A stretch of DNA of 64,000 bases from Marinobacter sp. (GCF_035268745.1 NZ_DATFKH010000120.1:21161-85160), one strand, 5' to 3'; positions 7,523 through 21,362 are shown, numbered from the stretch's first letter. Notes: generated by a model from the sequence alone, not told the origin. Numbers and translations: made by a program.

Positions 7523-9370
7523 TCAGGCCTGCCGGTCACCGTATAGCTGGGCGTAAAGCCCCTGCTTGGCAATCAGCTCGTCATGGTGGCCTTCTTCACT
7601 GATATAGCCGTCTTCAAACACATAGACCCGATCGGCCTGTTTCACCGCGCTCAGGCGGTGGGCGATGATCAGGGTGGTGCGCTGGCGCAGGAATGCCTCC
7701 AGGTCCTCGTGAAGCTGATACTCGGTTTCCGCATCAAGCGCCGACGTGGCTTCGTCCAGAATGACCACTGACGGGTCAGACAGCACCATTCGTGCGATTG
7801 CCAGGCGCTGGCGCTGGCCGCCGGAAAGCCGGACGCCCTGGCGACCGATCATGGTGTCCAGACCGTCCGGCATTTCCGCCACAGTCCGGTCCAGCTGGGC
7901 AATGCTCAGAGCCTGCCACAGGGCGTCATCGTCACGCTTGCGCCCAAGCGTCAGGTTCTGGCGCACGGTATCATTGAAAAGGGCGGGGTGCTGCAACACC
8001 GTAGCAACATTTTCCCGCAGACGCGGCAGACCAATCCGCTGCACCGGCACGCCGCCAAGCAGAATTTCGCCCTGCTGCGGCGTATACAGCCCCAGTATCA
8101 CCTGAACCAGCGTCGACTTGCCGCCTCCGCTGGCACCTACCACAGCCACTTTCTCTCCGGCCATCACGTGCAGATCAATGCCCCGGAGAATCGGTTCGTC
8201 GCCGTAGCTGAAATGAATATTCCTGAGTTCCAGATCCACCGTGTGCCGATCACGGAATGGATCTTCCAGAGCGGGATAACGCGGTTCCTCTTTCAGTGCC
8301 AGCAGGCGGTTAATCCGGGCCAGCGCGGCGTTGGCGGCAAACCAGGCATACTGCATGGTGAGCATCTCCTGCACCGGCGTCAGCATGAACCAGAGATAAC
8401 CGAAGATAGCGAACATCATGCCGATGCTCAGGTCACTGAGCAGCACCGTGACCATGGCCGCCGCCCGAAAGGTATCGACACCGAACTGGAACAGGGCAAA
8501 ACTGGCGCGGCTGGCTGCGTCGCTGCGCCACTCGAACTGAATGGCATGATCCCGCACGACTCTGGCGCGGGATACCAGATGTTGCAGATAATGGCCTTCC
8601 CGGTTGGCAGCGCGAAGCTGGTGAATAGCGTCCAGGGTTTCCGTCAGATCCCCCTGGAAATCCTCGTAGGCGCTGTTTTCCTGGCGTTTGAGATCCTTCA
8701 CCCGCTTGCTGATCAGCATGGTAGCGAAGATCACCAGAGGATTGAACAGGAGAATCAGCAGGCCCAGCTGCCAGTGCACCCACAACAGCACACAGGCGGT
8801 ACCGGCCACGGTCAGACTGGCCACGACGAAACGGCTGATGGTGGTACCGAGAAACTGGTCGATGGTGTCCAGGTCGGTAATGAAATGGCTGGTAATACCA
8901 CCAGAGCCGCGGGTTTCATATTCCGACATGGCCACCCGCCGCAGGCGACCCAGAAGCTTCGAGCGGATACGGAAGACAACATCCTTGGAGATTTTCGAGA
9001 ACTCGCGGGATTGAGCCACGTTGAACCCGAGTGCCAGCAACCGCAGCAGAAAGGCGGCCAGCACCATGGCACCGATATAGACCAGGGGCAGATGCCACGA
9101 TTCCGGCAACAGCGACTGCATGACCGGCAGTACCGGCCCCGGCTCATCCAGCAGGACCTCATCCACCAGCACCGGCAGCAACAACGGAATCGGCACACTG
9201 ACGACTGTGGCCATGATCGCCAGCAGGTTGGCCCTGACCAGACGCGGCCTGTGCTTCAGCGCCAGCGACAGAATGTCCTTCCAGGCGTAGGGACGGTCTG
9301 GTGCACTGGCAACTTCCCCGGAACGGTCTTCTGTGGCCGAAAACTCGCCTTGCTCTTTTACCTGTTGCAA
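7523..9370 (-). CDS. ABC exporter, fused permease/ATP-binding (MdlB/MsbA-like)
   Basis: TM domain followed by Walker A GASGGGKST, signature LSGGQRQR and Walker B ILDEATSALD. TTG start with GAGGGG RBS. Confidence 0.92.
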   Translation of the reverse strand: MQQVKEQGEFSATEDRSGEVASAPDRPYAWKDILSLALKHRPRLVRANLLAIMATVVSVPIPLLLPVLVDEVLLDEPGPVLPVMQSLLPESWHLPLVYIGAMVLAAFLLRLLALGFNVAQSREFSKISKDVVFRIRSKLLGRLRRVAMSEYETRGSGGITSHFITDLDTIDQFLGTTISRFVVASLTVAGTACVLLWVHWQLGLLILLFNPLVIFATMLISKRVKDLKRQENSAYEDFQGDLTETLDAIHQLRAANREGHYLQHLVSRARVVRDHAIQFEWRSDAASRASFALFQFGVDTFRAAAMVTVLLSDLSIGMMFAIFGYLWFMLTPVQEMLTMQYAWFAANAALARINRLLALKEEPRYPALEDPFRDRHTVDLELRNIHFSYGDEPILRGIDLHVMAGEKVAVVGASGGGKSTLVQVILGLYTPQQGEILLGGVPVQRIGLPRLRENVATVLQHPALFNDTVRQNLTLGRKRDDDALWQALSIAQLDRTVAEMPDGLDTMIGRQGVRLSGGQRQRLAIARMVLSDPSVVILDEATSALDAETEYQLHEDLEAFLRQRTTLIIAHRLSAVKQADRVYVFEDGYISEEGHHDELIAKQGLYAQLYGDRQA

Positions 9371-9534
9371 ATCGCCCCCTCAAAACCCGAATCTCCGGGA
9401 CATACGATACTCTGCCGCTGGCAGCCCAACATTATCGGCTCACTTTTCCCTGCCGCCAGAGCGCTGGTGGCCGGGTCCGCCATCTGCCATCATTACAGCC
9501 TGTCATCCTGTGACCCCTCGGAACCGGACCTATT

Positions 9535-10986
9535 GTGAGACACGACTGCCATTATCACCCGGGCGAACCCGCAAAATGGCATTGTGGCGAATGCCAGATG
9601 CACTACTGTTCCCGCTGCATGCCCGATGCGAACCACCGCAGACAGCATGCGCTGTGCCCACAGTGTAACCGGGTCATGCGTTACCTGGGTGCAGCCACGG
9701 AAGCCGTGCCTTTCTGGAACCGGATTGGCGCATTTTTCCGCTATCCCTTCCATACCGATCCGATGCTGGTCATCGCCATCTGCACCCTGGTTCCGCTGCT
9801 GATCACCGGCAACATTGTCGGGCTTATTGTCTCGCTGGTACTGGTGCTGGCGTTACTGAAATATACCTATGCGGTAATCCGCCATACCGCCGAAGGCCAT
9901 ATGAAGCCCCCGCCCCTGGCGGTAGCCTTCACCGGCAGCGGGTTCGATATCGTGATCCTGCAGCTGCTGGTATTCATCCTGATGGGGGCTCTGGTCGGCG
10001 CCGCCGGGATGCTGGGCGGACCAGTGCTGATGCTGGTAATGCTGGCTCTGGTTGTCCTGGCATTACCGGCCAGCGTGATGGTGCTGGCCATGGAACACTC
10101 CGTTGCCGCCGCGGTAAACCCGCTGAACCTGGCGGTGCTGATTTCCCGCATCGGCAGCCGCTATTTTCTGCTTTATGGCTACCTGATACTGTTATCCGTG
10201 GCCTCCGGCGCTGCCCAGGAATTCGCCTTCAACCATTTTGCCCCTCACCTGGCCAATATTCTTGCCGGCTTCCTGAACAGCACCTTTACCCTGATGCTGT
10301 TTCACATGTTGGGCTATCTGCTGTTCCAGTACCAGGAAGAGCTGGGCTTCGCCAGCGATCATCAGGACCAGGAAAAGCCGGGGGAAAGCCAGGGCCGGGA
10401 CCGCACCCGCCGCTTTGACGCCGACATCGACATGAACCTGAAGGATGGCAACTACGACCGGGTCGAGTCCATGCTGAAGGAGAGTCTGAAGCGGGAGCCG
10501 GCCAACGCCTGCCGGCTGCAGCAGCTGCACTCCCTGCTTACAGCCCGTGATGACCGCCAGGAGCTGTACCGCTACCACCCGCGCCTGCTCGCCATGCTGG
10601 CGGACAGCAATGACGGCGACACCATGGCCGGTCTGCTGGCAACCATCGAGAGCATCCAGCCCGGCTTTAAACCGGATGACCCGGAATTGACGCTGCGCTG
10701 CGCAAAAGTCCTCTATAACCGCGGCCAGTTCAAACCTGCCCTGAAACTGCTACAGGACTTTCACAAGCGCTTTCCCGGCAGCGAATGCCTGCCCCATGCC
10801 TACCTGACAATGGCCCAGGCGCTGGCTAACGGGCTTGGCCAATGGGAAAAAGCCACGGCGTTTCTCAGTTTTGTCAAAAAGCGCTGCGCCAACCACCCGC
10901 TGCATGAACAGATTGATGTGTATCTGCAGCAGGCGCGGAACCGGGAGCCTCTGAAAGGACCCCGGGCATCGTTCAACGTCGAGTAG
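9535..10986 (+). CDS. B-box-like Zn finger + multi-TM (DUF4013-like) + TPR protein
   Basis: N-terminus CHYHP..A..HCGECQMHYCSRC...CPQC, then several TM helices, then a helical TPR-like C-terminus. GTG start. Confidence 0.75.
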   Translation: MRHDCHYHPGEPAKWHCGECQMHYCSRCMPDANHRRQHALCPQCNRVMRYLGAATEAVPFWNRIGAFFRYPFHTDPMLVIAICTLVPLLITGNIVGLIVSLVLVLALLKYTYAVIRHTAEGHMKPPPLAVAFTGSGFDIVILQLLVFILMGALVGAAGMLGGPVLMLVMLALVVLALPASVMVLAMEHSVAAAVNPLNLAVLISRIGSRYFLLYGYLILLSVASGAAQEFAFNHFAPHLANILAGFLNSTFTLMLFHMLGYLLFQYQEELGFASDHQDQEKPGESQGRDRTRRFDADIDMNLKDGNYDRVESMLKESLKREPANACRLQQLHSLLTARDDRQELYRYHPRLLAMLADSNDGDTMAGLLATIESIQPGFKPDDPELTLRCAKVLYNRGQFKPALKLLQDFHKRFPGSECLPHAYLTMAQALANGLGQWEKATAFLSFVKKRCANHPLHEQIDVYLQQARNREPLKGPRASFNVE

Positions 10987-11061
10987 CCCGGCGTCCCGTC
11001 TGGTCAGTTTGCTGAGCTACCGGGCATCCGAGGGGCCTGTCGGTCGGGACACTGGCCACTT

Positions 11062-12513
11062 TCAAGCCCCGTTTGCCAGTAACTGGCGATAGTGTCGGGC
11101 CTTCGGGGTTACCTGGCGCTTATCGAATTCTTGCGCCAGCAGCCGGCAGGCTTCGTCCGCCAGGCTCTTGTCGCCGGCACTGCGAAGGCGTTCGAAAGCT
11201 CGCTCGGCGGATTTCAGATCGTCGTTACGCAGGCAGGTGAACAGCACCCGGTTGTGATCCTCCGCCGCCAGTGGAAAGTGGCTTTCTCCCAGCTTCATGT
11301 ATTCGGCCCAGACTTCAATCGTGCGCTCTGGCTGGCGTGCGTTCAGCTTTTCATTCATCAGCTTGCGGGCGTATTCGCGATAGGCAGCCCGGTCCGGCCG
11401 GAGCTTGGCCAGCTGGTAGAGGTGCTCGAGCACAACGATCCGGTCGGGATAGTGCTCCCGCAATGCTGCAAACTGCCGCTCGGCAAGATCGAACTCCATA
11501 CTGCCGAGGCTCGCCATGGCCCGGGCATAACCGGCGGTGAAGCGCTCGTCCTGCTCGTCTTCTTCCGGTTGGTAAAATTCCTCCTTGACCTGGAGCCAGC
11601 TTTTGCCCAACAGCCAGACCAGCCCAGCCCCGGCCACCAGTCCGCCCGCATGGGCCATGTAGGCGATGCCGGTGGCCCCGGCGAACCAGTAGTCATAAAC
11701 CTCCTTACCCAGCCATACCGGCAGCATCGCCAGTGCCGGCGCGCGGAAGTAGTTGAAATAGACCCCGACAAAATAGAAAAAGCGGATTTTCTGCAAACCG
11801 TAGATGGCCACGTACATGCCCATCAGACCGGAGATGGAACCGGACGCGCCCACCAGCGGCACGGTGCTGCCAGCAGAAAACGCCGCGAATACCAGGCCGG
11901 AGATGGCGCCACACGCCAGGTACGCCAGCAGAAAGCGGGCAGCACCCAGCGCTTTCTCTACGGTGAAACCGAGCAGAAACAGAAACACCAGGTTGCCGAT
12001 AATGTGGCCCCAGCCACCGTGAAGAAACTGATAGGTCACCAGGGTGTAAACTGACAGTTCGGCAGGCACCAGTCCCAACTGGTTGGCGCTCAGGCGGTTG
12101 ACATATCGCTGCTGGATCTCGCTGCGCTGGGCCAACCATGCCCGGCGTTGGTCTGAAGCCCAGATCAGGCCCCGGTTTTCCAGCAGGTACTGATAGAATT
12201 CGTTATCGAACAGAAGGGTGGCCGCAATCCAGACCTGTTCGCCCTGTTCCTGCAGGGTATTGAAGCCCTCCAACCGGGAAACCAGTTCTTCCCTGCCTTC
12301 CAGCCGAATCTGGCGTTGCAGATAATCCTCGTAGGCCGGTGCCTCCAGTACCTGCAGGTCCGCATTCAGATAGGCTTCCAGCGCCTTGTTGGCGAGCCGG
12401 TCATCGTCGCCCTGGTAAAACACAAAGACCAGAAAACAGGCCATGACCAGGCTCAGTGTCATCCAGGGCGGGCGTTTCCAGTTGACAGGAGTTTCCGCAG
12501 GGATAATCAGCAT
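11062..12513 (-). CDS. Rhomboid family intramembrane serine protease with C-terminal TPR-like domain
   Basis: FLHGGWGHIIGN, catalytic GASGS, second catalytic His in AYMAHAGG. Soluble helical tail. Confidence 0.9.
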   Translation of the reverse strand: MLIIPAETPVNWKRPPWMTLSLVMACFLVFVFYQGDDDRLANKALEAYLNADLQVLEAPAYEDYLQRQIRLEGREELVSRLEGFNTLQEQGEQVWIAATLLFDNEFYQYLLENRGLIWASDQRRAWLAQRSEIQQRYVNRLSANQLGLVPAELSVYTLVTYQFLHGGWGHIIGNLVFLFLLGFTVEKALGAARFLLAYLACGAISGLVFAAFSAGSTVPLVGASGSISGLMGMYVAIYGLQKIRFFYFVGVYFNYFRAPALAMLPVWLGKEVYDYWFAGATGIAYMAHAGGLVAGAGLVWLLGKSWLQVKEEFYQPEEDEQDERFTAGYARAMASLGSMEFDLAERQFAALREHYPDRIVVLEHLYQLAKLRPDRAAYREYARKLMNEKLNARQPERTIEVWAEYMKLGESHFPLAAEDHNRVLFTCLRNDDLKSAERAFERLRSAGDKSLADEACRLLAQEFDKRQVTPKARHYRQLLANGA

Positions 12514-12515
12514 GG

Positions 12516-12541
12516 ATTGTCACAATTCATCATTATTCGCC
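12516..12541 (+). promoter_or_regulatory. Putative response-regulator direct-repeat box (copy A)
   Basis: ATTGTC-acaa-TTCATC-atta-TTCGCC with a 10-bp period. 20/26 identical to copy B at 17645-17670 (minus strand). Confidence 0.5.
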
Positions 12542-12748
12542 TCGCCAGACCTGCTTTTTACCACAGCATGGCCTGTTTTTCGCGGTGTAATAAATCTGCA
12601 GCGAAATCGTAGGACGATCAGGGCGCTGATACTGTGAACGCAGCCGCACCGACGCCATTCGACCTGTCGCTTATGGTAATTGCCCCCACCGGCATCAATA
12701 ATACCGGGGGCAAAAGCAACAAAGGCCTGAAAATCAGAGGAATCAACC

Positions 12749-13183
12749 ATGACTGTACTTGTACTCGACCACACCAGGCTGATGGCCCAGAACACTTTTG
12801 CCGCCGCGGGCGGAGGCCCGGATGATTGCCCCGGGCGACCGCACCGCAAGCGCTTCCACTTCGGCTTCAATCAGCACCGGCTGAACCCGGACGATCAGGC
12901 ACTGCTGCGCCAGCACGCGGTCTGGCTGAAGCACAACCCCGGCGCCTGCCTGCACATTCACGGCCATTCCGATGGCTTCGGTGTAAGCGAATACAACCAG
13001 TTTCTGTCGCGGCTCAGAGCCAGTAGCGCTGCCAGGCTTATGCTCAGTGAAGGCGCACGGGAAACCCAGATTGTCATCAGTGGATGGGGCAGCGACCGGC
13101 CCCTTGCCAGGCTGGAGGATCACGCCGCCAACCGGCGCCTGGAGCTGGAGTATATCACCATGGATATGGCACAGGCCCTGTAA
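12749..13183 (+). CDS. Stand-alone OmpA/Pal-like peptidoglycan-binding domain protein (possible PdsO equivalent)
   Basis: FHFGFN..L, GHSD..G..EYNQFLSRLRA, GWG..RP, NRRLE. AGAGGA RBS. No signal peptide. Confidence 0.82.
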   Translation: MTVLVLDHTRLMAQNTFAAAGGGPDDCPGRPHRKRFHFGFNQHRLNPDDQALLRQHAVWLKHNPGACLHIHGHSDGFGVSEYNQFLSRLRASSAARLMLSEGARETQIVISGWGSDRPLARLEDHAANRRLELEYITMDMAQAL

Positions 13184-13201
13184 TCCGCCCCTGGGCGGGG
13201 A

Positions 13202-13606
13202 CTAGCCGTAAACCTGGAACACGTTCCAGAACAGCAGCAACGACAATACCAGAATGGCCAGCCAGGTCAGCAGGATGCCCACCATGCGTGCCATGTGTGG
13301 GCCACCACGGCCATTGATCATGCCAAACGCGTGGAGCAGGCGCCCCGCCACAAATGCCATCCCGGTCCAGTAGACCAGCGTGCCCGGCACGCCATTGAGC
13401 TCGGCGATGGCCAGCATGATCAGGCCGACTGGTGCATATTCGACCAGGTTGGCGTGAGCCCGCACCGCGGCCTGAAAATCGATATCATCGCTTACTCCCA
13501 GCCCCTGCCTGAACTTCAGGCGATAGCGGGAAACAAGAAAAGAAAGAACAAGTAGTAACAGCCCCAGAACGGCGGCGAAAACTGCAGAAACAGGTACGAT
13601 CATCAT
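13202..13606 (-). CDS. MAPEG family membrane protein (YecN-like)
   Basis: VRAHANLVEYAP and GRLLHAFG motifs. About 4 TM helices. Confidence 0.88.
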   Translation of the reverse strand: MMIVPVSAVFAAVLGLLLLVLSFLVSRYRLKFRQGLGVSDDIDFQAAVRAHANLVEYAPVGLIMLAIAELNGVPGTLVYWTGMAFVAGRLLHAFGMINGRGGPHMARMVGILLTWLAILVLSLLLFWNVFQVYG

Positions 13607-13848
13607 CAGGCCTTCTTGATTGCGCTAACCACGGCAAGTAACAGCACTGCACCCACCGTCGCGGTGACCAGTTCCCCCACCGCGCCCTGGGCCGCAAGCC
13701 CGAGCAGACGGAACACAAACCCTCCCAGGATTGAACCCACAATACCGATACCGATATTGGCCATGACGCCAAAACCGCGACCTTTCATGATCAGTCCCGC
13801 CAGCCAGCCGGCAATACCACCAATAATCAGAAACAGAATCAGATTCAT
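13606..13848 (-). CDS. GlsB/YeaQ/YmgE (transglycosylase-associated) membrane protein
   Basis: 80 aa, IIGGIAGWLAGLIMKG..G...NI.IGIVGS...ATVGAVLLL. Confidence 0.9.
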   Translation of the reverse strand: MNLILFLIIGGIAGWLAGLIMKGRGFGVMANIGIGIVGSILGGFVFRLLGLAAQGAVGELVTATVGAVLLLAVVSAIKKA

Positions 13849-13925
13849 AACCTACCCCTTTGAGTTATGCGGCAAGACTGCCCGTTTTCATGACCCGCTT
13901 CAAGCATTTCCCGCCCGGTTGGCGG

Positions 13926-14639
13926 TCAGTCACGAATCGGGGCCAGGGTGGCAATCGTCGCCGCCATGGTGTCGTGGCACTCCCTGATCAGCCCGGGAAT
14001 ATCATCCCGGGTAAGGCCGGCGGTTTCCACCGGGGGCAACACCCTGATGGCAACCGGTTCCCGCCGGCCGGACCAGCCGATCACCTTATCCTGATACTGG
14101 CTGACGCACACCATGGTGATGGGTGCCCCGGCCTCCACCGCGGTGTAAAAAGCACCTTTCTTGAAACTCTGCAGGCCCCGCCCCCGGCTGCGGGTGCCTT
14201 CCGGGAACACCCACAGGCTTTTGCGCTCCCGGCTGATGGCATGGGCCGCGGCTCGCATGGCCACAACGGCCCGGTCGGAGCGGCTGCGATCCAGCATCAC
14301 ATTGCCGCCAAGCCAGAAAACCTGGCCGAAAAAAGGCACCCACACCAGAGCCTTTTTACCCACCGTTACGGTTCGCGGCGGCAGCAGCCCGCCCAGCATG
14401 AACAGGTCATCGTTGTGCTGGTGATTGGCGATAACCACGGTCGGGCGGTCGACCGGAATATTTTCCCGGCCGCTGACCGTGCATTTCATCCCCAGCAGGG
14501 CACAACCGACTTTGGCGATTGCCCAGGCCAGATAACGGTTATTATCAGGGTTAAAAGGCCGCGCCAGATAGAAAAGCAGGGCGAAAAGACAAATAATGAG
14601 GACACTCATCCAGGCCAGAAATTTTCTCAGCAATCCCAT
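13926..14639 (-). CDS. plsC: 1-acyl-sn-glycerol-3-phosphate acyltransferase
   Basis: NHQHNDD (HX4D), FPEGTRS, FKKGAF. Confidence 0.92.
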   Translation of the reverse strand: MGLLRKFLAWMSVLIICLFALLFYLARPFNPDNNRYLAWAIAKVGCALLGMKCTVSGRENIPVDRPTVVIANHQHNDDLFMLGGLLPPRTVTVGKKALVWVPFFGQVFWLGGNVMLDRSRSDRAVVAMRAAAHAISRERKSLWVFPEGTRSRGRGLQSFKKGAFYTAVEAGAPITMVCVSQYQDKVIGWSGRREPVAIRVLPPVETAGLTRDDIPGLIRECHDTMAATIATLAPIRD

Positions 14640-14672
14640 CCAGATAACCCTGATCTAGTTACCAAGCTGAAA

Positions 14673-14796
14673 GAAAGTAGGCGGACACGTCCATTCAGGA
14701 CCGTATGCAGCAGGGATGCTGCATCCGAGCCTACATGGATGTATTCACGGCGTGTCCTGAATGGACGTGTCCGCCTACTTTCCTACTCATTAGTAA
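14673..14796. repeat. REP/REPIN-like inverted-repeat element
   Basis: Perfect 29-bp arms 14673-14701 (GAAAGTAGGCGGACACGTCCATTCAGGAC) and 14754-14782. Internal hairpin ATGCAGCA-ggga-TGCTGCAT. The right flank recurs at 39164. Confidence 0.8.
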
Positions 14797-14808
14797 TGGC
14801 GCACAGGT

Positions 14809-15408
14809 TCAGCTTTCGACAACTGCCGCCAGCTCGCTGCCAATGGCCTCTGCGTATACTACGTAGCGTAGCGGTCCGTTGGCCTCAATGCTATTGAAGG
14901 GATAGCAGGTTACCAGCAGCAATGAATCGCGGGGCAGCATGGACTCGTTGATCCGGTGGTAACGGCTGTCCACCACCCGGGTACTGCTGATCCGGAAGCT
15001 CCGCCACTGACCGCCACGGCTCTGGAGCTTCAGCGTAGCGCCGGTTTCAAGATGCTCCAGGCTTCGGAAATGGGTATCCCGATGACCGGCAATCACTGTT
15101 GGCCCGGCGTTCTGGTCGCCGCCAACAACCTGGCCAGGGCCAAAGGCCAGACTTTCACCATGGGCTCCATCCAGCACGATCAACGACTGCCGGCTTCCGT
15201 CCCCGTCCTCGTCGGGTTGCAGGACGAGGCGGGCCACCGGCCAGGTGTCCGCCCAGGGCCAGGGGCGAACCTGCATCTGGCGGGCCTGGCTCTCCGCCCA
15301 GGCCAGCTCGAGCAATTCCTGGGCGACCAGTGCCTTGAACGGAATCCAGAGGCCAAACGCCAGTATTGCAAAGGACAAGACGGTAGTGAGCATGCACAGG
15401 TATTTCAT
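14809..15408 (-). CDS. Class GN (marine proteobacterial) sortase
   Basis: Catalytic IAGHRDTHF, LVTCYPF and LRYVV. N-terminal TM. Probable start at 15408 overlaps the target gene stop (TGATG). Confidence 0.9.
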   Translation of the reverse strand: MKYLCMLTTVLSFAILAFGLWIPFKALVAQELLELAWAESQARQMQVRPWPWADTWPVARLVLQPDEDGDGSRQSLIVLDGAHGESLAFGPGQVVGGDQNAGPTVIAGHRDTHFRSLEHLETGATLKLQSRGGQWRSFRISSTRVVDSRYHRINESMLPRDSLLLVTCYPFNSIEANGPLRYVVYAEAIGSELAAVVES

Positions 15409-17534
15409 CACAGCGCCCGCCATTTCAGCAGGCCAATCGCTGCACTGAACATCAGCCCCAGCAGACCCAGCGCCTGGAACAATGGCGCCAGGGTGGCGGT
15501 CTGCGGATAACGCAGCATTCCTGAGGCCAGCCCGGCAGGCAGCAATGTCGGGACGCTGTCAGCAGCCATAGCTGCCGATTCCGGTCGGGACGGCGTTCGG
15601 TCCACGGCCAGAAAACTGGTGTAGGGCGTGATCAGGTCATGCTCCAGGCCCAGGGCCGTGACCCTTGTGGCGATATCGCCCCGGGCCGGCGCTTGCGGAT
15701 CTTTGCCAAGCGTGTGGGCATCCAGCAGGGCATCAATCTGCTGTCGCGCCCATACCCGGTGCAGCCCTTTGCCGCTGGCGGCCTGTTCCAGACTGAGCGA
15801 TTGTTGCCAGGTACTGCCGTCAGGCAGTATTCCTGACACCTGCAGATCCCCCTGCGGGGCCTGACCACGAACCACCTGACTCAGTGGCTCGCCGCGGAAC
15901 AGATCCCCGATCCGGTGCGGCCGGGCACTCTGTTGCGCTGACGCATCCGGCCACTCCATGCGGATATTGGTTAACACCGCCGACTGCATCTTGCCGAACA
16001 GCTCAGCAAGACGGCGCTCCAGATCCGACCTGCTGTTGATGGCGGTGTGGGTGCCACGGCCAAAACGCGCCGCCTCGCGCATGAAGTGCATGTTGGGCGC
16101 CGAACCGATGCCCACGGTAAACAGGCGGGTGTCCCCCAATTGCTGCTCGATACGCTGGAACAGCGCCGATTCGTTACCCACCGAACCGTCGGTGATAAAC
16201 ACCACCTGACGCAAGCGCTGAACACCGTCCGGCGTTTGCGATACGGCCCCGGACTTCCGCTGATTCAGGGCAGCATCCAGCGCCGAAGCCATTTCCGTGC
16301 CGCCCTCTGCCTCCAGACTGCGGACATAGCGACGGGCCCGGGCCAGATTATTACCACTGGCAGGCACCGGATCGATAAACAGTGAGGCGGTCTGGCTGTT
16401 GAACTGGATAACGTTGAACAGATCGTCCGGCCCCAGCGTGTCCAGCCCCCGCAGCAGCGACTGTTTTGCCTGAGCTATGGATTCCCCCGCCATGGAGCCA
16501 GAGGTATCGATCACAAACACCAGTTCCCGGGCCATCTGCTGATCGGATTCCAGTCCCGGGATCATCATCGCCAACAGGTAGCTCTCGCCCTGCCACTGCT
16601 GCTGGAAAACCGCGGCGGAAGGCGTCATTCCCCGTGCTGGCGCCCAGCGAACCACCAGATCCCGATCCATGGCGAAGCTTCCTGCGCTGGTGGTTACCGC
16701 CACCGAATTACCATTCCAGTTACTGGCCAGCTGATGGCCGGGGCTGCTGACCCGGCTGACCGGCAGGCCGGCCCTGATGCTCATGGTGATGGTCGCCTGA
16801 TGGCTGCCAGCGGCCACATCCTCGGGCAAGACCGTATGGGGGCTGATGCGGTCGGCGTCCGGCACTGCGGTGGTCGGGCTTGCCCAGCCACCCTGCCAGG
16901 CCGTCGCGCCATCGCGAACAACCTTGCCCGGCATATAGCGGGGCGTCAGGGTCGTTGGCAGGCGTAGCTCGAATTCCCCGGACTGATAACGCACAGGCTG
17001 CTGATAGCTGAGATCAATGGCAATCGACTCTCCCGGTGGAATGTTCGCCAGATGCGTGGTGAACAGGTTGGGCCGCTGCTGATCGACTCTCGCCACCTTC
17101 CGGCCTTCGCTTCTGGCTTTGGCGTATTGCTGTCTGGCCACCTCCTTTTCCCGGATTTCTCCCCGGATAAGGCGCTCGCCCGCCATCATGGTCAGGCCGT
17201 AGACACTGGCTTTTGCCGGCAGAGGAAAAACATAGACGGCTTCCCGCCATTGCCGGCCCGGATTGCGGAAAGTCTGGCTCAGGCGCACATCCGCCACCAG
17301 CCCGGTCACCTCGACCTGATAGTCGGTGCTTACCAGCGTTGCCGATTCCAGCCCGGGACCCGGTGAGTCCAGAAACCTCAGCTCACCGGCGCCTGCAGAG
17401 GCTTCGGCATACATGGGCTGGACAAACAGAAACAGCAACACCGCCAGCCACAGCGAGATGTCCTCCATTATCCGGCGGACACGCCTGGCCGGGATGGGTG
17501 ATACAGGTCGGGACAGCGAACAGGTTGGCAGCAT
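15408..17534 (-). CDS. Marine proteobacterial sortase target protein (VIT + vWA, LPXTG-like tail)
   Basis: VIT domain (EAVYVFPLP), vWA MIDAS motif FVIDTSGSM and FITDG. C-terminal YPQTAT + TM + KWR. Confidence 0.9.
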   Translation of the reverse strand: MLPTCSLSRPVSPIPARRVRRIMEDISLWLAVLLFLFVQPMYAEASAGAGELRFLDSPGPGLESATLVSTDYQVEVTGLVADVRLSQTFRNPGRQWREAVYVFPLPAKASVYGLTMMAGERLIRGEIREKEVARQQYAKARSEGRKVARVDQQRPNLFTTHLANIPPGESIAIDLSYQQPVRYQSGEFELRLPTTLTPRYMPGKVVRDGATAWQGGWASPTTAVPDADRISPHTVLPEDVAAGSHQATITMSIRAGLPVSRVSSPGHQLASNWNGNSVAVTTSAGSFAMDRDLVVRWAPARGMTPSAAVFQQQWQGESYLLAMMIPGLESDQQMARELVFVIDTSGSMAGESIAQAKQSLLRGLDTLGPDDLFNVIQFNSQTASLFIDPVPASGNNLARARRYVRSLEAEGGTEMASALDAALNQRKSGAVSQTPDGVQRLRQVVFITDGSVGNESALFQRIEQQLGDTRLFTVGIGSAPNMHFMREAARFGRGTHTAINSRSDLERRLAELFGKMQSAVLTNIRMEWPDASAQQSARPHRIGDLFRGEPLSQVVRGQAPQGDLQVSGILPDGSTWQQSLSLEQAASGKGLHRVWARQQIDALLDAHTLGKDPQAPARGDIATRVTALGLEHDLITPYTSFLAVDRTPSRPESAAMAADSVPTLLPAGLASGMLRYPQTATLAPLFQALGLLGLMFSAAIGLLKWRAL

Positions 17535-17644
17535 GATTCCATTTCCTTTCCAGCGTGAAAACCAGCGCCCGGGTGCAAGAGCGGCTGGTCACTATTGAAA
17601 CCTCCGGAAAGGACCATCCGGTGCCGGAAAGCGGCGGATTAGCC

Positions 17645-17670
17645 GATGAAAAATGATGAATTGTGGCGAG
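17645..17670 (-). promoter_or_regulatory. Putative response-regulator direct-repeat box (copy B)
   Basis: Minus strand CTCGCC-acaa-TTCATC-attt-TTCATC, between the divergent target gene and pdsR. Confidence 0.55.
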
Positions 17671-17765
17671 GGGGTGCCGCACCCTTGTTCTGCAGCAGTA
17701 CCGTGGTTAAATGGAGGCTTCCATCCCCGCTCAGGGGCAAGAGTCCAACAGACTGGCTCAAGGTT

Positions 17766-18467
17766 ATGAAACGTCACCTCGTGCTCATTGAAGATGAACC
17801 TGCCATTCGCGAGAACTACCGCGATGCGTTTGAACGCCGTGGTTATCGGGTGTCGGCCTACAGCAACCGCAACAGCGCGTTTCAGGCACTGCGGGCAGGC
17901 CTGCCGGATCTGGCAATCATTGATGTTGGCCTGGGCGACGAGCCTGAGGGCGGATTTACCCTGTGCCAGGACCTGCGCGTACTGTCGCCAACCCTGCCAA
18001 TCATCTTCCTGACCGCCCGGGACAGCGATATCGATTCAGTCCACGGGCTGAGACTGGGCGCGGACGATTATGTCACCAAAGACATGAGCATGGATCACCT
18101 GCTGGCGCGGGTAACCGCCCTGCTCCGCCGGGCCGACGCCTGGTCGGAAGCACTCAGACAGCCGGACGAAGTACTGAACCGCGGCCGCCTGACGCTGAAC
18201 GTGGACCGTATGACGGCCCAGTGGGACAGCCACGCCATCGAACTGACCGTCACCGAATTCTGGATGCTGCACTCACTGGTTCAGCACCCGGGCCATGTGC
18301 GCAGCCGCGACCAGCTGATGGACGCCGCCAGCACAGTGCTGGACAATAATACCGTCACCTCCCACATCAAACGCATCCGCAGAAAGTTTCAGGACGTGGA
18401 CAGTGCCTTTGACGGCATTCACACAGCCTATGGCATGGGTTACCGCTGGAACGCCCATGAGGCCTGA
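17766..18467 (+). CDS. pdsR: Sortase-system OmpR-family response regulator PdsR
   Basis: MKRHLVLIEDE.AIRENY, receiver + wHTH, TVTSHIKRIRRKF..YGMGYRW. Start set at the in-frame ATG 17766. Confidence 0.85.
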   Translation: MKRHLVLIEDEPAIRENYRDAFERRGYRVSAYSNRNSAFQALRAGLPDLAIIDVGLGDEPEGGFTLCQDLRVLSPTLPIIFLTARDSDIDSVHGLRLGADDYVTKDMSMDHLLARVTALLRRADAWSEALRQPDEVLNRGRLTLNVDRMTAQWDSHAIELTVTEFWMLHSLVQHPGHVRSRDQLMDAASTVLDNNTVTSHIKRIRRKFQDVDSAFDGIHTAYGMGYRWNAHEA

Positions 18468-18470
18468 TTC

Positions 18471-20492
18471 GTGACCCTGAAACGCCAGTTGGTCATTGCC
18501 AGCGTGCTGATGCTGGTCATTCCCTGGGCCGGCCTGCAGTTCGTTCTGGAGCTGGACACTGCCCTGCGGCAGCAGGCGGCTACGCAACTGGAGCAACAGG
18601 CCGGCAGAGTGGCCAGCCTGATCGACGTTCCGGCAATTGATGAATCACGACCAGGTGGTAAACCGGTAACCTACGCCCCCACCCTTGACCGCTCGCTGGA
18701 ACCCGATGGCTACGGCTCCGACTGGCCCGAGTATGACGAAGAGCACAGCAGCCAGCCCTGGCAGGGCACTGGCACATTGCCCGATAATGCCACTCTGAAA
18801 TGGAGGGTGGCCGTGCAGGAAAACAATCTTTATCTGCTGGTCCGGATCAATAATCGCATGCAGGGTTTTTACCAACCGTCCCGGCCGGAGCAGCCGTTTG
18901 ATCAACTGCTAATCTCTATTGAGCAACCACAGGATGTCATCGAACGGCTTGTGCCGCGCCTAAGCCACGGCAGGATCAATGGGCTTGTACCAGGGAGGAG
19001 TAATGCGCTGGACTACAGATTTCGCGGAGCGTGGCAATTACCCGACAATAACGGCCACCAGCTTGAACTGCGACTGCCACGGCCGGAACAAGGCGCTGGA
19101 TTCGGCTTTCAATTGATGGGCCCGGTTGAGGAAAGCGAAAGCAGAACCAGCCGGCAACAGCCGCTGTTCGAATACCCTGATAGCCGGCTGATCAGCCGTC
19201 AGGCCCCACTGGAACAGCGGTTGGAACAGCTGATTGCACCCGGGCAGAGCGCCTGGGTTCTGCAACCGGAAGGCTGGGTGATCGCCCGGCAGACCCAACC
19301 CTCGAACCTCCGGAGACCGGCTTTCGACAGCCTGACGCCCGCCCAGATTCTCGAGCGCATCAGTCTCAACGCCCTGCGGGCACTGGTGCGGGCCTATCAG
19401 CCCGAACCGATCCTGGTCGATAGCGACGCCCACCAGTTCAGCGGTAGTGAACTGCCCGACCGCGGCCTGGTGCGCCACGGCAACGGCGATCTCTATCTGC
19501 TGACCACCGAAACCCTGGCCAGCGGCCACACGCTGGTGCTGGAGGAATCCCTGGATCAGATGCTGACCCTGTCCGGCAGCACCCTGGGTTCGGTGATTGC
19601 CCGCAGCGCCCTGCTTCTGATCGTGCTGACGCTGGCACTGCTGGGCTATGCCAGCTGGTTGTCCTGGCGTATCACCCGGCTGCAGCGAGCGGTCAGCGCC
19701 AGCATTGATGACGACGGCCGCCTGCTGCGAACCCTGCCACCGGTGACAGCGAAGGACGAACTTGGCGACCTGTCCCGCCAGTTCAGTCATCTTACCGAGC
19801 GGCTGCACGGCTACACCCACTATCTCGAAAGCTTCTCCCGCCGACTGTCCCACGAACTGAAAACCCCCATCGCCGTCGTGCGCTCGTCCCTGGAGAACCT
19901 CAGTCAGAGCGCCAGCGACGAAGACCGGGCAAACTATCTGGCCCGGGCCAGGACCGCGACCGACCGCCTGAGCCAGATTCTTCATGGCATGAGCGAGGCG
20001 GCACGGCTGGAACAGAGCCTGGACCATGCCGAAAAGGAAAGCTTTGATCTGGCCGATGTCTGCGTCCAGACCACCGCGGCTTATCAGTCACTGGCACCGG
20101 ATTTCCGGGTTCGCTATCAGGGTCCGCAGCAAGGGGTTCGATACCACGGCTCGCCGGAGCTGCTGGTGCAGTTGCTGGACAAACTGGTGGACAACGCCCG
20201 GGATTTCACACCGCAAGGCGGCCTGATCGAGATCAGCCTGCGCCGGGAGTCGCAATATCTGCTGCTGAGTGTGTTCAACCAGGGCTCCGCGCTGCCCGAA
20301 GAACTGGCCCAGGACATTTTCAGCCCCTTTGTATCGGTCCGCTCCCCGGGCCAGGAAGGACATCTTGGCCAGGGACTGCTGATCGCCCGGCTGATCGCCG
20401 AACACCATCGCGGGCGAATCCAGGCCGGCAATGAAAACGGAGGTGTCCGGTTCACCGTCGCGCTGCCCAAGGAACCTCTGACCAACTCCTGA
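18471..20492 (+). CDS. pdsS: Sortase-system sensor histidine kinase PdsS
   Basis: TM, large periplasmic domain, TM, HAMP, H-box LSHELKTPIAVVRSSLENL, GHLGQGL. Confidence 0.85.
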   Translation: MTLKRQLVIASVLMLVIPWAGLQFVLELDTALRQQAATQLEQQAGRVASLIDVPAIDESRPGGKPVTYAPTLDRSLEPDGYGSDWPEYDEEHSSQPWQGTGTLPDNATLKWRVAVQENNLYLLVRINNRMQGFYQPSRPEQPFDQLLISIEQPQDVIERLVPRLSHGRINGLVPGRSNALDYRFRGAWQLPDNNGHQLELRLPRPEQGAGFGFQLMGPVEESESRTSRQQPLFEYPDSRLISRQAPLEQRLEQLIAPGQSAWVLQPEGWVIARQTQPSNLRRPAFDSLTPAQILERISLNALRALVRAYQPEPILVDSDAHQFSGSELPDRGLVRHGNGDLYLLTTETLASGHTLVLEESLDQMLTLSGSTLGSVIARSALLLIVLTLALLGYASWLSWRITRLQRAVSASIDDDGRLLRTLPPVTAKDELGDLSRQFSHLTERLHGYTHYLESFSRRLSHELKTPIAVVRSSLENLSQSASDEDRANYLARARTATDRLSQILHGMSEAARLEQSLDHAEKESFDLADVCVQTTAAYQSLAPDFRVRYQGPQQGVRYHGSPELLVQLLDKLVDNARDFTPQGGLIEISLRRESQYLLLSVFNQGSALPEELAQDIFSPFVSVRSPGQEGHLGQGLLIARLIAEHHRGRIQAGNENGGVRFTVALPKEPLTNS

Positions 20493-20585
20493 ACCGTCGC
20501 CTGACCCCGGCGGTGGAAACCTGCGAATCCGTCAACAACCCCCTGGATGATCTGTCCCGGTGTATCGGCCGGGCGTCAGACCAGG

Positions 20586-21362
20586 CTAACTGAACGTGCC
20601 CGCAAACTGACGGTAGAACTGTTGGGCGGTCCGGCCATTGCGAACACCCTTGGCAGTGGCAAACCGGATCGCCTCCTGATGCAGGGCAGCACGGTTCCGG
20701 ATCTCCGGAAACAGTGCATCCACCGCCTGCAGATAGATGTCCTGGGGAAACGGATAGAACGACAGCTGGAGACCAAACCGGTCCGCCAGTGATACCTGCT
20801 CCTCAATGGCCTCAGCCGGATGAAGTTCGCCATCACGGACCTGGCTCTGCAGGTTGTCCGCCATGAACTCCGGCATCAGGTGGCGGCGGTTGGATGTGGC
20901 ATAGACCCGGACGTTTTCCGGCGGCAGTTCCAGTGAACCTTCCAGTACACTCTTCAGGGCCTTATAACCGGACTCGCCGGCATCAAAGGAAAGGTCGTCG
21001 CAGAAAATCACAAACCGGAATCGCAGATCGCACAGATCATCGACAATTTCCGGCAGGTTGACCAGGTCATCCTTGTCCACCTCGATCATGCGCAGTCCCT
21101 GATCCCTGTAGCGATTCAGCAGCGCCTTGATCAGCGAGGACTTGCCGGTGCCCCGGGAGCCCCAGAGCAGGGCATTGTTGGAGGGCTCACCGGCAAGAAA
21201 CCGCTCGGTGTTGCGGCCCAGCGCCTGCCGCTGGCGATCAATACCCTTCAGACTCTCCCACTGCACCGGATCGAGCCGGCGAATGCCCCGCAGAACACCA
21301 CGGTGTCGGCGCCAGACTGCGGCGTGGGTCGATTCCCAGTCGATAGTTCCAGGTTCGCCCAT
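20586..21362 (-). CDS. DUF815 family AAA+ ATPase
   Basis: Walker A WGSRGTGKSS, FCDDLSF, YKALKSVLEGS, ATSNRRHL. Start moved to ATG 21362, just after the upstream stop. Confidence 0.88.
   Translation of the reverse strand: MGEPGTIDWESTHAAVWRRHRGVLRGIRRLDPVQWESLKGIDRQRQALGRNTERFLAGEPSNNALLWGSRGTGKSSLIKALLNRYRDQGLRMIEVDKDDLVNLPEIVDDLCDLRFRFVIFCDDLSFDAGESGYKALKSVLEGSLELPPENVRVYATSNRRHLMPEFMADNLQSQVRDGELHPAEAIEEQVSLADRFGLQLSFYPFPQDIYLQAVDALFPEIRNRAALHQEAIRFATAKGVRNGRTAQQFYRQFAGTFS

Follow-up and report, generated by a model that had tools for sequence, protein, structure and literature searches.

Introduction

The two-component system PghKR/PdsRS was recognised only recently as a peptidoglycan-damage sensor, which in Shewanella controls resistance and tolerance to beta-lactams. 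In S. oneidensis the kinase and regulator of the Pds system, SO2192/SO2193 (renamed PghKR), are activated by beta-lactams, vancomycin, D-cycloserine, moenomycin and the loss of PBP1a, and PdsS of Shewanella has a large periplasmic CBM9-like domain (10.1101/2023.05.05.539549). Besides sensing damage to peptidoglycan, the system induces its own expression and drives the pdsO-target-sortase operon (10.1101/2023.05.05.539549; PMC13712847), together with blaA and relV (10.1101/2023.05.05.539549). The target, SO2195, stabilises spheroplasts and gives tolerance, creD and phoPQ are listed in the regulon (PMC13712847), and creD is PghR-dependent (PMC13712847; PMC11580497). The Shewanella regulon includes the OmpA-like protein PdsO, and in S. 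algae the PdsS substitution G547W increases the expression of pds genes by a factor of 100 to 800 (PMC11580497). An operator motif is not given in any of the three studies. Here we describe the corresponding locus in a 64,000-nucleotide stretch of the genome of a Marinobacter sp. (GCF_035268745.1 NZ_DATFKH010000120.1:21161-85160), which we call the window and from whose first letter positions are counted.

An initial annotation of the window had read positions 9535-20492 as a possible extended envelope sorting and proteolysis module, with a functionally obscure core of sortase, target and PdsRS. Since a peptidoglycan-damage response has been shown experimentally for PghKR in Shewanella, that core is no longer obscure (10.1101/2023.05.05.539549; PMC13712847; PMC11580497). 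We propose that the locus belongs to a three-locus PdsR regulon marked by a candidate operator and lies beside a separate, ancient rhomboid pair; this is the best explanation of the data and probably the correct one. Judged from sequence, we are dealing with a known regulon that has a predicted extension specific to the genus, and not with a single module of 11 kb.

Results

The Pds locus of Marinobacter

The core of the locus comprises the following genes:
14809-15423, minus strand: class GN (marine/proteobacterial) sortase (TIGR03784, 191.8 bits, cut-off 158.25)
15408-17534, minus strand: VIT-vWA sortase target (TIGR03788, 749 bits, cut-off 552)
17766-18467, plus strand: PdsR, OmpR/PhoB-family response regulator (TIGR03787, 384 bits, cut-off 335.7)
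18471-20492, plus strand: PdsS sensor kinase, predicted PghK ortholog (TIGR03785, 541 bits, under the cut-off of 612)

Sortase, target and PdsR thus score above the NCBI equivalog cut-offs and PdsS below its own. We identify the locus as the predicted PdsRS (PghKR) two-component system of Marinobacter with its divergent target-sortase operon, the control region between target and pdsR measuring 231 bp. Open reading frame (ORF) lists and scans against Pfam and NCBIfam recovered, in place, every gene that the initial annotation had named. The target ends in an LRYPQTAT sorting signal (YPQTAT at 15492-15509), a hydrophobic helix and a basic tail, and this arrangement is kept across the genus, as judged from the C-termini of 27 orthologs. 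PdsR is the ortholog of Shewanella PghR, and its nearest non-Pds family is CreB (178 bits). The kinase part of PdsS matches TIGR03785 well, while the periplasmic part covers profile positions 29-236 alone, with 77 bits; a test of this part for a CBM9-like domain gave no Pfam match and a partial homology to the N-terminus of TIGR03785. The periplasmic sensor domain appears to have diverged.

PdsR is present in 58 of 400 sampled Gammaproteobacteria. For PdsO (TIGR03789) the best score in the whole source genome is 63.6 bits against a cut-off of 152, and none of 41 relatives exceeds this cut-off. The source genome has no creD.

A tandem box at three loci in the genome

A repeat search of the window revealed an 18-nt pair, 94 % complementary, formed by two copies of the box GAAWAATGATGAATTGTG at 12521-12538 (minus strand) and 17648-17665 (plus strand). 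Two matches to the box pattern occur in the window, against 0.04 expected from shuffles. Exact copies of its 14-mer core are found in the 3.4 Mb genome at two sites only, upstream of a rhomboid gene and of pdsR, and a third copy with one mismatch lies on another contig (C52). The genes and sites concerned are:
11062-12513, minus strand: rhomboid intramembrane serine protease, 483 aa, with a TPR-like C-terminal tail (PF01694, E 8e-26)
12518-12539, minus strand: box copy 1, tandem operator-like site CGAATAATGATGAATTGTGACA, 36.7 bits, ending 5 nt before the rhomboid ATG
17647-17668, plus strand: box copy 2, tandem operator-like site TGAAAAATGATGAATTGTGGCG, 33.0 bits, about 113 nt from each of the divergent ATGs
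contig C52:19498-19519 (locus L003:1496-1517), outside the window: box copy 3, 60 nt upstream of a glutathione peroxidase gene

A genome-wide scan with a position weight matrix (PWM) built from the genus sites returned these three loci at 33-37 bits, and the next best site, at 17.7 bits, is at the level of the reversed-genome control. The shared DNA box that the initial annotation had reported is thus real, standing at three sites well clear of a 17-bit noise. Among 41 relatives a strict 15-mer gave 60 matches and the reversed control 2; the third strict site lies, in 15 genomes, in the spacer between an alaA-like gene and the peroxidase gene, in peroxidase orientation. The genus consensus, CAATTRTGAT-GAATTRTGRC, is a tandem direct repeat with 10-bp phasing and a half-site of approximately GAAWTRTGRC, and this structure is plainest at the peroxidase gene and in other families (CAATTGTGAT-GAATTGTGGC).

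Two weaker PWM sites, C38:21278 (minus strand, 17.7 bits) and C186:1129 (plus strand, 16.5 bits), are at control level and we make no claim for them; the first precedes a gene for an Rrf2-family regulator and the second a gene for a 511-aa protein of no assigned function. An Rfam search of positions 9000-21000 gave matches at chance level only, and a scan for consensus promoters and terminators was uninformative.

The box as candidate PdsR operator

Phased direct repeats are the usual site type of OmpR/PhoB regulators. At pdsR we find the arrangement of such an operator, namely half-sites repeated in tandem at a distance of roughly one turn of the helix, in front of the gene for the regulator itself. 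The box precedes pdsR in 22 of 22 genus loci and, outside the genus, in four loci that represent other families of the order (L051-L054). The initial annotation had suggested looking for the motif in orthologous promoters, and it is indeed kept across the genus, both at pdsR and at the rhomboid gene. Scored with the genus PWM and counted when above each sequence's own 95th shuffle percentile, a same-strand tandem box is present in 19 of 29 pdsR upstream regions from other families (controls, 2 and 4), mostly at -55 to -155 from the pdsR start, and there it reads CAATTGTGATSAATTGTG.

About 18 nt downstream of the pdsR box lies a promoter-like pair:
17683-17712, plus strand: putative pdsR promoter, consisting of CCTTGTTCT (-35-like), a 12-nt gap and TGGTTAAAT (extended -10-like)

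Both parts of this pair are conserved blocks in 22 genus sequences. The position of the box, upstream of the pair and about equidistant from both starts, fits an activator site common to the two operons. A further element, GTGGCAGAA, is spaced at 41 nt, exactly as the TGTGGTAAAAA element described below is spaced at the rhomboid gene. The phased repeats, the related boxes at pdsR in other families and the tandems at creD described below suggest that the box behaves like the PdsR operator. The box, and the rhomboid and peroxidase genes as predicted members of the regulon, are the parts that would be new here.

Box-like tandems also occur at creD. This gene was found in 12 of the 57 PdsR-positive genomes that represent other families of the class, and in 5-6 of the 12 a tandem is centred at -66 to -84 from its start, always on the opposite strand (same strand, 0 of 12). 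Locus L051 (genome G038) carries a second strict box in the spacer between its PdsO-like OmpA gene and a globin-like gene.

The rhomboid gene and the position of its box

The protein belongs to the rhomboid superfamily (PF01694, 91.4 bits against a cut-off of 22.6). The GASGS motif with the catalytic serine, HxxxN and AHAGG (AHxGG) can be read in the translation, and the tail gives a weak TPR_14 match. Identity with rhombosortase (TIGR03902, 30 bits against 84) and with GlpG (family hidden Markov model, 21.6 bits against 250) was rejected, and a PDB sequence search matched no solved rhomboid.

The box stands at a fixed 5 nt from the rhomboid ATG in all 21 PdsR-positive genus genomes inspected, counting variants with 1-3 mismatches. 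It occupies the interval between the ATG and a second conserved element:
12560-12565, minus strand: TGTGGTAAAAA, a TGTGGT(AAAAA) element 41 nt upstream of the proximal half-site, conserved in 20 genus sequences

This element may be either a distal half-site or an extended -10 (TGnTAAAAA); we do not take it as a sure extended -10 because the TATGAC found there in genome G006 fits a half-site equally well. Since the candidate operator overlaps the region where translation would start, and the only promoter-like element lies upstream of it, we favour repression or attenuation of the rhomboid gene by phosphorylated PdsR (PdsR~P), which we consider marginally the likelier of the two predicted directions, the other being activation.

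The same position allows the box to be read as an element that acts at the level of RNA or translation, instead of or besides a role as DNA operator. It overlaps a Shine-Dalgarno (SD)-like AGGGA, 6 nt before the ATGATG of the box, which opens an upstream ORF (uORF) of 8 codons, MMNCDxPC; its TGA stop and the start of the rhomboid gene overlap (ATGCTGA). Throughout the PdsR-positive genomes this uORF is open, the spacing of box and ATG is fixed and no SD sequence lies within 13 nt of the rhomboid ATG, so that the gene would be translated by termination and reinitiation. Consistent with this, orthologs outside the genus have an ordinary SD sequence 6-9 nt before the ATG, and some PdsR-less genomes have regained an SD-like sequence near it. 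On the other hand, pdsR and the peroxidase gene start 60-170 nt downstream of their copies of the box, and the open frame there varies (in the source genome 38 codons for pdsR and 13 for the peroxidase gene, in L031 17 for pdsR). The uORF peptide is not conserved past the box itself, the +1-frame TGA follows automatically from conserved Met-Leu-Ile codons, and a 10-bp tandem repeat is the signature of a DNA site. An action on RNA or translation is therefore unlikely.

Two single cases concern the rhomboid gene. In locus L034 (genome G010) its box is kept with one mismatch, ATTGTGATGAAGTGTGAC. In the complete genome G023 the ortholog (C1:2487118-2488563, L188) contains one in-frame TAA, and a pseudogene or a sequencing error are both possible.

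The glutathione peroxidase gene

A gene for a BtuE-type glutathione peroxidase, divergent from the alaA-like aminotransferase gene, starts 60 nt downstream of the third box; being outside the window, the peroxidase gene was missed by the initial annotation. In most genomes the box is 12-13 nt ahead of an ATTTAAC element, which in many genomes is followed by a stronger proximal promoter. Most other Marinobacter have about 140-170 nt between box and peroxidase gene, with a strong promoter, TTGTAA...TATAAT, carrying the palindrome TTGTGCACAA; the source genome has lost this segment.

Glutathione peroxidase, glyoxalase and MsrB genes stand directly beside the sortase gene in locus L051 (8019-9704 and 15473-17015) of genome G038, which belongs to another family and in which a PdsO-like OmpA gene comes after pdsS. 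As a general rule the adjacency of peroxidase and sortase was rejected, as it was seen in this genome only and in 0 of 22 other loci outside the genus.

Loss of PdsRS or of the sortase in the genus

PdsR is present in 143 of 151 Marinobacter genomes. The strict box occurs in all 143 PdsR-positive genomes and is absent from seven of the eight PdsR-negative ones. The exception, G717, is assembled in 690 contigs and has the box together with the OmpA-like gene and a normal rhomboid upstream region; an assembly gap probably accounts for its lack of PdsR. In the rhomboid tree six PdsR-less genomes group as one clade (support 97/95), so that PdsRS was lost once; the seventh, G017, whose assembly is 88 % complete and yielded no rhomboid, was therefore not placed in the tree.

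The PdsR-less clade retains PlsC, MAPEG, rhomboid and B-box genes at the locus and has lost the genes for the OmpA-like protein, YeaQ, sortase, target and PdsRS. The rhomboid box is decayed in this clade to varying degrees and its fixed spacing is lost: G703 and G738 have AGGATGAATTGTGAC plus a 10-nt insertion, G710 and G635 retain only AGGATGAAT, and in G652 nothing is left. A search of all eight PdsR-negative assemblies for an ortholog of the peroxidase found none.

The reverse situation is seen in G006 and G021, which have independently lost sortase and target and kept pdsRS. Both retain the tandem box at the rhomboid gene and a box-like site upstream of the peroxidase gene. In G693 the pdsR-type and rhomboid-type boxes (C1:984297 and 986961) lie 2.7 kb apart, as in G021, which suggests a further independent loss of sortase and target with retention of PdsRS.

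An older rhomboid and zinc-finger/TPR pair

Beside the rhomboid gene lies the gene that the initial annotation had called B-box:
9535-10986, plus strand: membrane protein, 483 aa, consisting of a B-box-like Cys/His zinc finger at the N-terminus, a polytopic core resembling DUF4013 and TPRs at the C-terminus

Its Pfam matches to B-box and DUF4013 are under the cut-offs and that to TPR_19 is above. Full-length rhomboid orthologs with 30-42 % identity occur in many other families of the order, and a B-box-type gene directly adjoins the ortholog, convergent or in tandem, in at least 20 of 24 non-Marinobacter loci. None of these loci carries the box, the OmpA-like gene, MAPEG or Pds genes. As the pair occurs throughout the order with neither Pds genes nor box, it is an older, separate module, which would have been recruited in Marinobacter.

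Neighbouring genes and elements

Between the rhomboid gene and the sortase lie the following features, of which the PlsC gene had not been listed in the initial annotation:
12680-12713, plus strand: conserved leader hairpin of the OmpA-like gene; of the 10 pairs predicted by an alignment fold, 6 show compensatory changes
12749-13183, plus strand: OmpA_C-like protein, 144 aa (PF00691, E 1e-14, 54.7 bits)
13202-13606, minus strand: MAPEG-family membrane protein (PF01124)
13606-13848, minus strand: YeaQ/GlsB (Transgly_assoc) small membrane protein (PF04226)
13926-14639, minus strand: PlsC-type 1-acylglycerol-3-phosphate acyltransferase (PF01553, TIGR00530)
14659-14796, no strand: element resembling a miniature inverted-repeat transposable element (MITE) or repetitive extragenic palindrome (REP), with 43-nt inverted arms, between plsC and the sortase gene

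The initial annotation had joined the rhomboid, B-box and OmpA block to the sortase core and had tentatively attributed the whole to a PdsR-controlled response to envelope or peptidoglycan damage. For such a single PdsR-controlled sorting and proteolysis module speak the ten-gene order (B-box, rhomboid, OmpA-like, MAPEG, YeaQ, PlsC, sortase, target, pdsR, pdsS), kept in about 20 Marinobacter species, the loss of the OmpA-like and YeaQ genes along with PdsRS in the PdsR-less clade, and the membership of the OmpA-like PdsO in the Shewanella regulon (PMC11580497). The OmpA-like protein of the window, however, is not PdsO (TIGR03789, 29.9 bits against 152) and lacks an export signal, and no box lies near the B-box, OmpA-like, MAPEG, YeaQ or PlsC genes. 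In G019 the locus has neither YeaQ nor PlsC, YeaQ is also missing in G006 and in the PdsR-less clade, and the OmpA-like gene is truncated or degenerate in the PdsRS-positive G010 (L034 7797-8250). MAPEG, PlsC, rhomboid and the B-box gene persist where PdsRS is gone. Finally, no rhomboid, B-box, MAPEG, YeaQ or PlsC gene neighbours the Pds genes at 20 PdsR loci from other families of the class or at three sortase loci from other families of the window's order. We therefore regard the single module as improbable. The damage response stands for the core, by virtue of the Shewanella experiments, and the link to the block stands for the rhomboid gene with its conserved box, where the comparative support is good; the data support neither for the box-less OmpA-like gene, nor the response for MAPEG, YeaQ and PlsC. 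These four are probably mere neighbours of the sortase, in this genus only.

The OmpA-like protein carries a peptidoglycan-binding motif (YNxxLSxxRA, NRRLE). Identity with Pal was rejected (68 bits against 125, no export signal recognised), and no signal peptide was found in any species compared except G008, where an in-frame lipobox is present: there (L050) the ORF extends about 107 codons further upstream, to a lipoprotein signal …LLATLAGCSS, and the segment with the OmpA-like and rhomboid genes is inverted relative to the window. A hidden N-terminal signal peptide was rejected for the other species, since the upstream 'peptide' switches frame between species, which points to conserved DNA or RNA. 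The leader (12655-12745) is ordered as TCGACC..TCGCCAATTGCCG, the hairpin and AACAAGAAAAACC. The hairpin matches no Rfam family, no second box was found near the gene, and the hairpin is outside the box system.

The MITE/REP-like element is dispersed, with 64 arm copies genome-wide, in a long form (about 90 nt between the arms) and a short palindromic form; one copy adjoins the peroxidase box on contig C52.

Discussion

We propose the following mechanism. PdsS would sense periplasmic peptidoglycan damage and phosphorylate PdsR, as expected from homology to Shewanella, and PdsR~P would bind the 10-bp-phased tandem direct-repeat operator. This operator would mark a regulon of three loci: the pdsRS/target-sortase region, the rhomboid gene and the distant BtuE-type peroxidase gene. 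The first of these would be activated and autoinduced, as shown in Shewanella. In this genus the rhomboid pair would have come to adjoin the Pds locus, and the rhomboid gene would have acquired the operator.

Some observations weigh against this proposal. Ten of the 29 pdsR upstream regions from other families have no significant box. The sites at creD could be CreB sites, CreB being the closest paralog, and the cre tag is likewise a direct repeat of the TTCAC type. A box 5 nt from the ATG is atypical for an activator, and the direction of control at the rhomboid gene is a guess. Moreover, the loss of PdsRS is one evolutionary event that coincides with a deletion of the rhomboid upstream region; the decay of the box and the loss of the peroxidase gene could in part reflect rearrangement and genome reduction (3.0-3.7 Mb genomes).

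That another regulator binds the box, or that the box is a non-functional relic and the adjacency of Pds and rhomboid genes mere inherited gene order, is very improbable: the single loss of PdsRS gives their co-occurrence low phylogenetic power, but the box is held in all 143 PdsR-positive genomes while the flanking intergenic DNA has diverged, stands upstream of pdsR in many other families, is limited to three loci per genome and decays progressively inside the PdsR-less clade.

If the three-locus regulon is correct, the conserved candidate operator allows its members to be predicted from sequence throughout the Gammaproteobacteria. With the rhomboid and peroxidase genes among them, wall damage would be tied to the proteolysis of membrane proteins and to protection against oxidation, and there would be one of the few physiological entry points to a bacterial rhomboid and its conserved zinc-finger partner. 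A more speculative extension, to which we give little credence, is that PdsR couples the sensing of wall damage to intramembrane proteolysis by the rhomboid, with the zinc-finger/TPR protein as substrate or adaptor and the peroxidase limiting oxidative damage to the membrane. The rhomboid might release the cytoplasmic zinc-finger domain, or cut the membrane anchor of proteins like the sortase target. If true, such a switch would be the first signal-controlled role for a proteobacterial rhomboid. If, conversely, the box is not bound by PdsR, the finding shrinks to an ordinary genus-level gene order around a known system.

Comparison with known systems

The closest systems are PghKR with pdsO-SO2195-SO2196 and the S. 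algae pdsS/pdsR genes, which share with the Marinobacter locus an orthologous regulator and a homologous kinase. The divergent spacer at the target-sortase operon measures 232 bp in S. oneidensis and 231 bp in Marinobacter, and both have a sorting motif of the PQT(A/S)T type. Unlike Shewanella, the Marinobacter genome has neither PdsO nor creD, its PdsS is under the family cut-off with a diverged sensor domain, and its predicted regulon contains a rhomboid protease and a glutathione peroxidase.

The CreBC/BlrAB systems recognise the cre/blr tag, a direct repeat TTCAC-N6-TTCAC. They resemble the Pds system in the control of creD and in phased direct repeats, and the reverse complement of the box indeed has TTCAY-type repeats; the Marinobacter box differs in its 10-bp rather than 11-bp phasing and its longer half-site, GAAWTRTGRC, and the sensors of the two systems differ.

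Rhomboids of the YqgP/GluP type in Bacillus subtilis combine a rhomboid core with C-terminal TPRs and act in membrane-protein quality control or regulated proteolysis. The Marinobacter rhomboid likewise has a rhomboid core followed by a TPR-like tail; unlike YqgP/GluP, it is accompanied throughout the order by a conserved, dedicated gene for a zinc-finger/TPR membrane partner. The rhombosortase/GlyGly-CTERM system also places a rhomboid-family protease near a C-terminal sorting system in a marine gammaproteobacterium (Haft & Varghese 2011, PMC3237569), whereas the sorted protein of Marinobacter carries the sortase-type signal PQTAT and not the GlyGly-CTERM of rhombosortase.

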